A stretch of DNA of 64,000 nucleotides from a virus (taxonomy: Duplodnaviria; Heunggongvirae; Uroviricota; Caudoviricetes). Below are positions 61,201 to 61,526 of the stretch, one piece after another (the first letter of the stretch is position 1; each line of letters starts with the position of its first letter). Location: IMG/VR virus record IMGVR_UViG_646311924_000007, positions 1 through 64,000 of that record; one strand, written 5' to 3'. A model generated the notes under the pieces. It was not told the DNA's origin and did not search any database. It was given only the letters and a program-made list of their open reading frames with translations. The position numbers were made by a program, and so were the translations under genes.

Positions 61201-61319
61201 TCAGAGAGCTTTATCATGACAGTGGCTTCAGAGTGGAACCTCTTTTTGCCAGACGTTCTGTGTCTTGTAAGGGGGACACTCGAGGTGTAGCTCATGACGT
61301 TTTGGGTATATTGCTCTAA
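58278..61319 (+). CDS. dmt: bifunctional DNA methyltransferase: N-terminal C5-cytosine MTase (interrupted by an intein) and C-terminal Dam-like N6-adenine MTase (DPPY motif); GTG start overlapping hrdC stop
   Basis: Motif IV PCQ (split), motif VI ENV ([12 protein letters not shown]), C-terminal FCDPPYEP. Confidence 0.85.
58509..59531 (+). mobile_element. 341-aa intein with LAGLIDADG homing-endonuclease domain inside dmt
   Basis: Starts with Cys (CFTAGH), block B TTNDHPF, two LAGLIDADG motifs ([21 protein letters not shown]), ends VVHN followed by +1 Cys; flanks reconstitute GGTP-CQAFS. Confidence 0.85.
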
Positions 61320-61325
61320 TAAATT
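61309..61325 (+). promoter_or_regulatory. perfect C1 operator ATTGCTCTAATAAATTT containing the dmt stop codon
   Basis: 17/17 match to consensus. Confidence 0.75.
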
Positions 61326-61339
61326 TATTAGTGTAATAT

Positions 61340-61526
61340 CACCTCAATGAATCGTGATTTATAGAGCGATTTAGCTGTTAGCCGCGACAGGCGCGGCGGT
61401 AAGCATGGCTGGGCCTAGTCCTCCCAGACAAACCACCGAGTTGCCAGGTTGACCATGCGCCTAAGTGGCAACGCCGAAGTGCGTTACGAGCGTCCAGTTT
61501 GCCCATCTTCGGGTGGGCGTTTTTTT
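61340..61526 (+). ncRNA. candidate structured RNA ending at an intrinsic terminator (GCCCATC-TTCG-GGTGGGC-T7 at 61501-61526)
   Basis: Several internal hairpins, strong terminator, no credible ORF. Confidence 0.3.

Follow-up and report, generated by a model that had tools for sequence, protein, structure and literature searches.

What kind of RNA leaves the C1-repressed promoter at the end of the dmt gene in a P1-like phage, before the transfer RNAs (tRNAs) and the ban genes are reached? This question was addressed in IMG/VR record IMGVR_UViG_646311924_000007 (Caudoviricetes), of which positions 1 to 64,000 were analysed, numbered along one strand; this stretch of 64,000 nucleotides (nt) is called the window, and positions given without another label refer to it. 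Annotated records of P1 (NC_005856), P7 and Escherichia phage vB_EcoM-Ro157c2YLVW (NC_050153), a Punavirus identical to the window (100% identity over 61200-62300), were used for comparison; the first 867 bases of 61200-62300 are about 98% identical to P1 and about 95% identical to P7. The window comes from a P1-like phage, and the region under study comprises the control elements of a P1-type ban operon together with the part of it that is transcribed first. To judge from sequence comparison, the region probably consists of the operator-promoter Op72ab/Pban and a C1-repressed RNA that resembles the long form of the prophage RNA DicF and would serve as the operon leader as well. Operator and promoter are already known from P1, and the new value lies in the RNA downstream of them, which appears to be a new variant of the DicF-type locus with a conserved domain that is apparently undescribed in the literature searched.

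Homology of the RNA core

The core of the RNA is a conserved structured domain of about 95 nt (61381-61472, plus strand) with four helices and a pseudoknot, homologous to the 5' domain of long-form DicF. In a sensitive DNA search, 61382-61476 was matched at 75–80% (about 77%) identity by a segment of many lambdoid phages, and the same segment was present in 4241 of 5426 complete E. coli genomes (about 78%); 475 of the 5426 had nearly complete copies of the P1 or P7 type, covering at least 80% of 61338-61530. The matching segment of E. coli K-12 (positions 2491-2605 of locus L004) is located in the Qin prophage between ydfC and dicB and ends about 16 nt before DicF (RF00039, L004 2622-2673). 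By alignment, the part homologous between P1 and the prophages is the segment upstream of DicF and not DicF itself. With a covariance model of the domain (R1) the window copy scored 94.9 bits (E about 4e-25); this copy was itself among the 71 sequences used to build R1, and independent support for its membership came from the blastn match of about 77% identity.

An earlier note on this DNA, made from its letters alone, had proposed conservation in related phages as a check, and the domain was found in P1, in P7 and in many lambdoid phages and prophages. The small RNA proposed in the same note stands as far as homology carries it, the core and the 5' domain of 190-nt DicF being homologues and the predicted length of about 181 nt being similar.

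Fold of the conserved domain

Copies of the domain were gathered by DNA patterns from genome and viral collections, reduced to 71 distinct sequences and aligned; the fold was drawn by hand from these sequences and then tested on the same sequences by pair counts. It comprises, all on the plus strand, helix P1 (61382-61386/61392-61396), helix P2 (61397-61400/61435-61438), the variable hairpin P3 (61409-61413/61423-61427), helix P4 (61440-61446/61466-61472) and a pseudoknot (61403-61408/61453-61458) with its 3' arm within the P4 loop. All five elements are formed by the window copy. The alignment contains the long invariant runs GGCGCGGCGG.AAG.AUGGC and CAGGUUGACCAU.CGC and one hairpin, P3, whose stem changes freely and always pairs.

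In the model-guided alignment of the 71 copies, 96.1% of the cells at pairing positions were paired, compared with 30–56% when the partners were slid by 1–3 columns. Changes on both sides were seen at eight pairs, and as many were obtained in 2 of 500 shuffles. Outside P3, the core differences between P1-type and P7-type copies are nearly all compensatory (61400/61435, U-A to C-G; 61404/61457, C-G to U-A); between the P1-like and the lambdoid copies there is a compensatory pair at 61444/61468, and the P3 stem also covaries. The lambdoid copies have an additional closing helix, P0 (UUGUGGC/GCYRCAA; 92.8% of cells paired, two pairs changed on both sides), which makes a four-way junction and cannot be formed by the P1-like flanks. 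The core at 61381-61472 is a real conserved structure and not a set of chance hairpins. A fold calculated with RNAalifold contained the pseudoknot helix and missed P2 and P4, because knots cannot be modelled by this program. Of the several hairpins described in the earlier note, the comparative analysis upheld conserved structure, whereas folding energy against shuffled sequence did not.

Beside P3 in the K-12 Qin copy, a 9-mer GUUGAGGAC was noticed (L004 2547-2555) that recurs exactly at the dicB ribosome-binding site (2833-2841), and pairing with either copy of GUUGAGGAC is conceivable for the P3 loop, which is rich in pyrimidines (mostly UCCUU or CCUCC). As a general feature, pairing of the P3 loop with a downstream GAGGAC was rejected: the P1-like loop reads GUCCUC, and there is no GAGGAC target in 61300-64000.

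Extent and coding capacity of the RNA

The non-coding RNA would extend over about 181 nt, from a predicted start near 61346 to the terminator end at 61526. A 5' leader hairpin of eight pairs (61348-61373, plus strand), present in both the minimum-free-energy and the centroid fold, is specific to the P1 family and does not occur in the lambdoid copies. The domain is followed by a linker of 27 nt (61473-61499, plus strand), which occupies the place of the DicF seed of the prophages and is unrelated to it in sequence by alignment, and by an intrinsic terminator (61500-61526, plus strand) that is common to the P1 family and phage D6. With a stem at 61500-61519, a UUCG loop and seven T at 61520-61526, this terminator is as the earlier note described it.

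Permissive Rfam scans of the window and of the K-12 copy gave no match over 61340-61480, with only weak matches to small RNA 3' ends, on the terminator; scans of the window, the K-12 copy and 15 related loci, both permissive and at gathering thresholds, gave no match to the domain. The Rfam scan that the earlier note had put forward as a check returned no family matching the RNA between promoter and terminator.

It is extremely improbable that the stretch encodes a small protein. A minus-strand open reading frame (ORF) of 110 amino acids spans 61378-61710 in the window, and SJ46, JL22 and some plasmids have a 'hypothetical protein' annotated at the matching stretch; however, this ORF is split into pieces of 42 and 82 amino acids in P1 and split differently in P7, and it is mainly the paired positions that vary, with compensatory changes, which is unexpected for a coding sequence. 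Plus-strand ORFs over the RNA reach 32-33 amino acids only, in agreement with the earlier reading that no plausible ORF is present.

The domain could also be a riboswitch-like sensor of a ligand or protein that sets formation of the adjacent terminator, which we regard as very unlikely. The arrangement is a typical one, with an intrinsic terminator placed a short way downstream of a pseudoknotted and highly conserved fold, and GGCGGUA occurs in both the domain and the terminator 5' arm of the lambdoid copies, so that an alternative pairing is conceivable; but no conserved alternative (antiterminator) pairing was seen by eye, no systematic search having been made, P1 and the lambdoid copies have the domain in common but wholly different terminator sequences, and no riboswitch family of Rfam was matched.

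Operator and promoters

Upstream of the RNA, C1 operator half-site Op72a (Oban a; 61310-61326, plus strand) matches the asymmetric 17-base-pair consensus ATTGCTCTAATAAATTT at 17 of 17 positions and half-site Op72b (Oban b, annotated Obanb; 61321-61337, minus strand) at 15 of 17, with two mismatches; both are annotated in P1 and P7. The half-sites are inverted and overlap by 6 base pairs, giving a bivalent operator that spans 61310-61337. Without mismatch, ATTGCTCTAATAAATTT occurs once in the whole window (61310-61326, plus strand), and nine sites with at most three mismatches were counted where 0.26 are expected by chance. Elsewhere in the window, operator-like sites with one mismatch lie at 4122-4138 (minus strand) and at 40393-40409, 42058-42074 and 57011-57027 (plus strand), and three more have three mismatches. 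The earlier note had recognised the only 17/17 operator of the window and had placed it at 61309-61325, one base to the left of its actual position. It had also recognised that the operator spans the dmt stop: the ORF at 58278-61319, annotated as dmt in NC_050153, puts its TAA codon (61317-61319, plus strand) inside half-site a. The second, overlapping half-site on the minus strand (61321-61337) and the identity of the element with Op72ab/Oban and P1ban/P2ban were absent from that note. We read the position of the dmt stop as gene packing and not as a coupling of translation to repression, the operator acting on the downstream promoter.

The sigma-70 promoter P1ban (61311-61339, plus strand) has its -35 hexamer TTGCTC at 61311-61316, a 17-nt spacer and its -10 hexamer TAATAT at 61334-61339, and hexamers and spacer are identical to those annotated in P1. 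A simple consensus promoter scan did not call P1ban, whose -35 hexamer has only three of six matches. Promoter P2ban (61294-61325, plus strand; coordinates transferred from P1, where it is marked as predicted) has the -35 hexamer ATGACG at 61294-61299 and the -10 hexamer TAAATT at 61320-61325. In the P1 record a divalent C1-controlled operator Obanab (formerly Op72ab) 'controls expression of ban', with P1ban and the predicted P2ban overlapping it; the P7 record carries the same operator annotation, and the sequence of 61308-61340 is the same in the window, P1 and P7. From the position of the -10 hexamer, transcription is inferred to start at about 61346.

C1 control of transcription starting at Op72/Pban is established for P1, and the window element is, by its sequence, the same element in a P1 relative; the C1-controlled transcription supposed in the earlier note agrees with this. 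Bof is a C1 co-repressor. Binding of Op72ab by C1 with Bof and repression in vivo are known for P1 and, the sequences being identical, would be expected of the window phage.

Relation to long-form DicF and proposed mechanism

A DicF species of 190 nt has reportedly been seen on gels since 1990 (by Faubladier). In a K-12 study, DicF species of 190 nt and 53 nt are reported from Northern blots; RNase III, cutting the dicBF transcript between +813 and +814, generates the 5' end of the 190-nt species, which accumulates, is increased further on RNase E inactivation and is gone without RNase III, with no longer species detected (10.1101/2023.04.14.536235). Counting 190 nt back from the DicF 3' end leads to about L004 2484-2489, just ahead of P0, which starts at 2490; the 190-nt RNA is thus the domain plus DicF. 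No description of a conserved fold upstream of DicF was seen in the parts consulted of two DicF papers.

The P1 RNA would be the counterpart of the prophage 190-nt long DicF, with the DicF seed and terminator module exchanged for another. In a lysogen, as established for P1, C1 would occupy Op72ab (61310-61337) over P1ban and P2ban and keep the promoters shut. When C1 is lost, host RNA polymerase would start near 61346 and transcribe in order a short hairpin, the autonomously folding domain of about 95 nt, the 27-nt linker and the strong intrinsic terminator. Transcripts stopping at the terminator would be RNAs of about 181 nt (61346-61526) and could accumulate; readthrough of the terminator would lead into a tmRNA-like (transfer-messenger RNA-like) RNA, three tRNAs and the ban genes. 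In the prophages RNase III releases the RNA from a polycistronic transcript, and the predicted P0 sits at about the 190-nt 5' end; in P1 a promoter lies directly in front of the RNA and P0 is missing, which fits a 5' end set by the promoter rather than by RNase III. The earlier note had offered as its other possibility a processed leader for the tRNA cluster; that the RNA and the tRNAs belong to the same operon is upheld, but about 460 nt, in which the conserved tmRNA-like RNA is located, lie between the terminator and the tRNAs.

As a working guess, the domain would be a stably folded 5' part to which a 3' regulatory and terminator module is attached and whose presence governs the processing of that module. 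Since its loops are nearly invariant, the sequences suggest that it is recognised and bound by a host factor. P1 keeps the domain and swaps the DicF part, an indication that the domain serves a purpose separate from DicF.

Several points weigh against a DicF-like RNA at this place. The folding energy of the window RNA was no better than that of shuffled sequence (z -0.92 and -1.50), although such nonsignificant scores are uninformative either way on a pseudoknotted fold. RF00039 (DicF) gave no match at E up to 1 in 60800-62800, with 76.7 bits for the K-12 control; the 3' module of P1 is therefore not DicF, and a DicF-like target cannot be assumed for it. The retrieval patterns fixed some alignment columns by construction for most copies, and the covarying pairs stem from few independent lineages, mainly the P1-like and the lambdoid ones. 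Phage D6 keeps the terminator and everything downstream without a recognisable domain (8.4 bits with R1), so the domain is not indispensable for the operon. Neither P1 transcript data for the RNA of about 181 nt nor a mention of it was found in the literature searched. Apart from these points, the duplex energy of the P1 3' module with ftsZ (-80 to +60) was no better than that of shuffled sequence, but the DicF positive control failed too (z -0.97), so that this crude test has no power.

Genomic setting and origin of the domain

In the lambdoid loci the domain belongs to the early-left operon: a DicA-type repressor and small genes with no known function precede it, and dicB or kil and exo follow. 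The sequences downstream of the domain fall into ten classes, and in all ten a hairpin and then a T run follow soon after it; an automated filter flagged a terminator in some of the classes only, and the rest were judged by eye from the sequences. Most classes are DicF or DicF-like, and the P1 class is unrelated in sequence.

This setting would also suit a cis-acting processive antiterminator RNA, working like put of phage HK022, that binds the elongating RNA polymerase and lets it pass the terminator at 61500-61526 and cross about 900 nt of untranslated stable-RNA genes to ban or, in prophages, reach dicB, exo and int; we consider this unlikely. It would account for the position of the domain, which in two unrelated types of phage always follows an early promoter under repressor control and precedes the first intrinsic terminator. 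In P1 this operator-promoter is annotated as controlling the ban operon, and the terminator stands between the operator-promoter and the other genes of the operon; no other promoter-like site was found in 61000-62500, and the small genes that precede the domain in the lambdoid loci include no recognisable N-type antiterminator. The short strings GCGCGGCGG, ACCAUGCG and GGGUU..CAGG.UGA are common to the domain and putL, which was located in HK022 by a published primer, and other phages have a boxA-like GUGCUCUUU directly upstream of the tmRNA-like RNA, at the place where P1 has the terminator.

Against such a function, HK022 gave no relevant hit with R1, the highest score being 5.6 bits at an unrelated site, and no putL-like string was found in HK022 28301-30100, where putR is expected to lie; the domain was accordingly rejected as a member of the put family. 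Its four helices and pseudoknot of about 95 nt differ from the put RNA, which consists of two stem-loops in about 70 nt (PMC9378689). In the K-12 study, transcripts with the domain mostly end at the DicF terminator, with no longer species (10.1101/2023.04.14.536235), and ordinary terminator leakiness could suffice for downstream expression. A reading of helix P1 as nut/boxB was dismissed as well, its loop (AAAUGG or ACAGG) being unlike boxB and no N-like protein having been found. Should the domain nevertheless be a new class of cis-acting RNA that reprograms host RNA polymerase, an analogue of put without homology to it in P1 and in widespread lambdoid prophages, to which we give little credence, early transcription would be carried through intrinsic and Rho-dependent terminators, to ban in P1 or past DicF to dicB, exo and int.

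The P1 leader is visibly a mosaic, with lambdoid homology stopping at about 61476-61481 and D6 homology starting at about 61498. The domain might then be a recombination remnant of a lambdoid dicF region that became fixed in the ban leader and is transcribed with no function beyond that of a leader. D6, with a different, degenerate insert between the same flanks, and the lack of helix P0 in the P1 copy would agree with this. We nevertheless hold it to be quite unlikely: P1-like and P7-like cores differ almost only by compensatory pairs, a signature of selection on the fold, the domain has been kept at about 77% identity with near-invariant loops while all its surroundings were replaced, and near-full-length copies occur in as many as the 475 E. 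coli genomes counted above.

The D6 leader (L172 1187-1286 and 1405-1480) has P0-like flanks (UUGCGGUAAU ... CCCCGCUGCAACG) around a different interior, with the score of 8.4 bits given above, and contains a further large hairpin ahead of the shared terminator; no other phage record has this leader segment. In K-12 the 5' leader of dicB, immediately past DicF (L004 2671-2880), is matched by the Rfam family STnc100 with 34 bits, below threshold; above threshold the family was found in two Ackermannviridae-type loci that have the tmRNA-like RNA (L176 2216-2430; L260 1118-1331).

Downstream and other RNAs of the window

The tmRNA-like RNA (61531-61706, plus strand) starts five bases past the T run of the terminator, in the same operon. 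The stretch from 61531 is 71–88% identical to unannotated DNA in 258 phage records from unrelated families. Its putative tag frame (61588-61620; GCA AAC GAT GAT CTG ATG ATG GTA GCG GCC TAA) would encode ANDDLMMVAA before the stop; an in-frame stop lies eight codons upstream, with no start codon between. Relatives were found in more than 120 viral contigs, with 10-codon frames including ANDDVVLMAA, ANDEQFLAVA, ANDNTFLAVA and ANDNAYLMVA, which resemble ssrA tags. The loop of a hairpin after the stop pairs with a downstream tetramer (61645-61648/61665-61668 in the window), giving a pseudoknot that occurs in four covarying versions (GUCG/CGAC, CCGA/UCGG, CCAG/CUGG and CCAA/UUGG). ARAGORN made no call for this RNA, Rfam gave only weak tmRNA matches below the gathering thresholds, no tRNA-like domain was found in it, and the ssrA-like tag strings were not found in the literature searched. 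In other phages (L180, L189, L229, L214, L285 and others) GUGCUCUUUC, which resembles boxA UGCUCUUU, stands directly before the tmRNA-like RNA; in some, this RNA has a strong promoter of its own (TTGACA, 17 nt, TAGATT) about 10 nt upstream, where the P1-types have the terminator.

Between the tmRNA-like RNA and the tRNAs, 61710-61797 forms a long hairpin (CAACAGG...CCUGUUG) followed by CGUUUUCUUUU; it is terminator-like, and in Rfam it gave only a spurious microRNA match. A long-arm tRNA-Tyr (GTA) at 62072-62158 lies between tRNA-Asn and tRNA-Thr, the only two tRNAs that P1 and P7 have here. Elsewhere in the window there are two C4 antisense RNA genes, each with an a1/b1 target element (3853-4059, minus strand; 40470-40676, plus strand), a sok antitoxin RNA at 44128-44302 and an IS009 RNA at 26954-27152.

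Comparison with known systems

The operator with P1ban and P2ban corresponds to P1 Op72ab (Oban) in sequence, place (the end of dmt) and bivalent layout. There is no substantial difference from the P1 ban control region, and the window operon has the extra tRNA-Tyr downstream. A 'dicF-like region' is annotated in the P1 record (NC_005856 68791-68892, corresponding to about 61434-61536 of the window) and takes in the linker and the terminator along with the 3' half of the domain; this annotation records a similarity and no more, leaves out the domain's 5' half and names DicF, which is not there. Like the domain, the HK022 put elements (putL and putR) are RNA elements that lie ahead of the first terminator of an early operon under repressor control. 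The two have a few short strings in common, at putL, show no covariance-model similarity and differ in helix layout and size.

The counterpart of the RNA would be the 190-nt DicF of Qin-type prophages (Ragunathan et al. 2023). Its 5' domain is homologous to that of the P1 RNA (about 77% identity, 94.9 bits with R1), the order of domain, linker and terminator hairpin is the same, the lengths are similar (about 181 nt predicted for P1 and 190 nt), and both RNAs are held off by a phage repressor, C1 in P1 and DicA in the prophages. They differ in that the P1 3' part is not DicF and the P1 RNA has no P0; in P1 the RNA would arise as a primary transcript at a promoter of its own, whereas the prophage RNA is processed from a messenger RNA. 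Compared with the dicBF operon, stable RNA genes and ban take the downstream place of dicB, and since the ban operon opens with a string of stable RNAs, the question arises of how transcription reaches ban. About 78% of complete E. coli genomes have the domain ahead of DicF, and P1-type phage-plasmids have it in the ban leader, yet it has had no described fold or Rfam family. For its role P1 would be a clean genetic system, with a promoter of its own, no need of RNase III processing and a switch through temperature-sensitive c1 (c1-ts).

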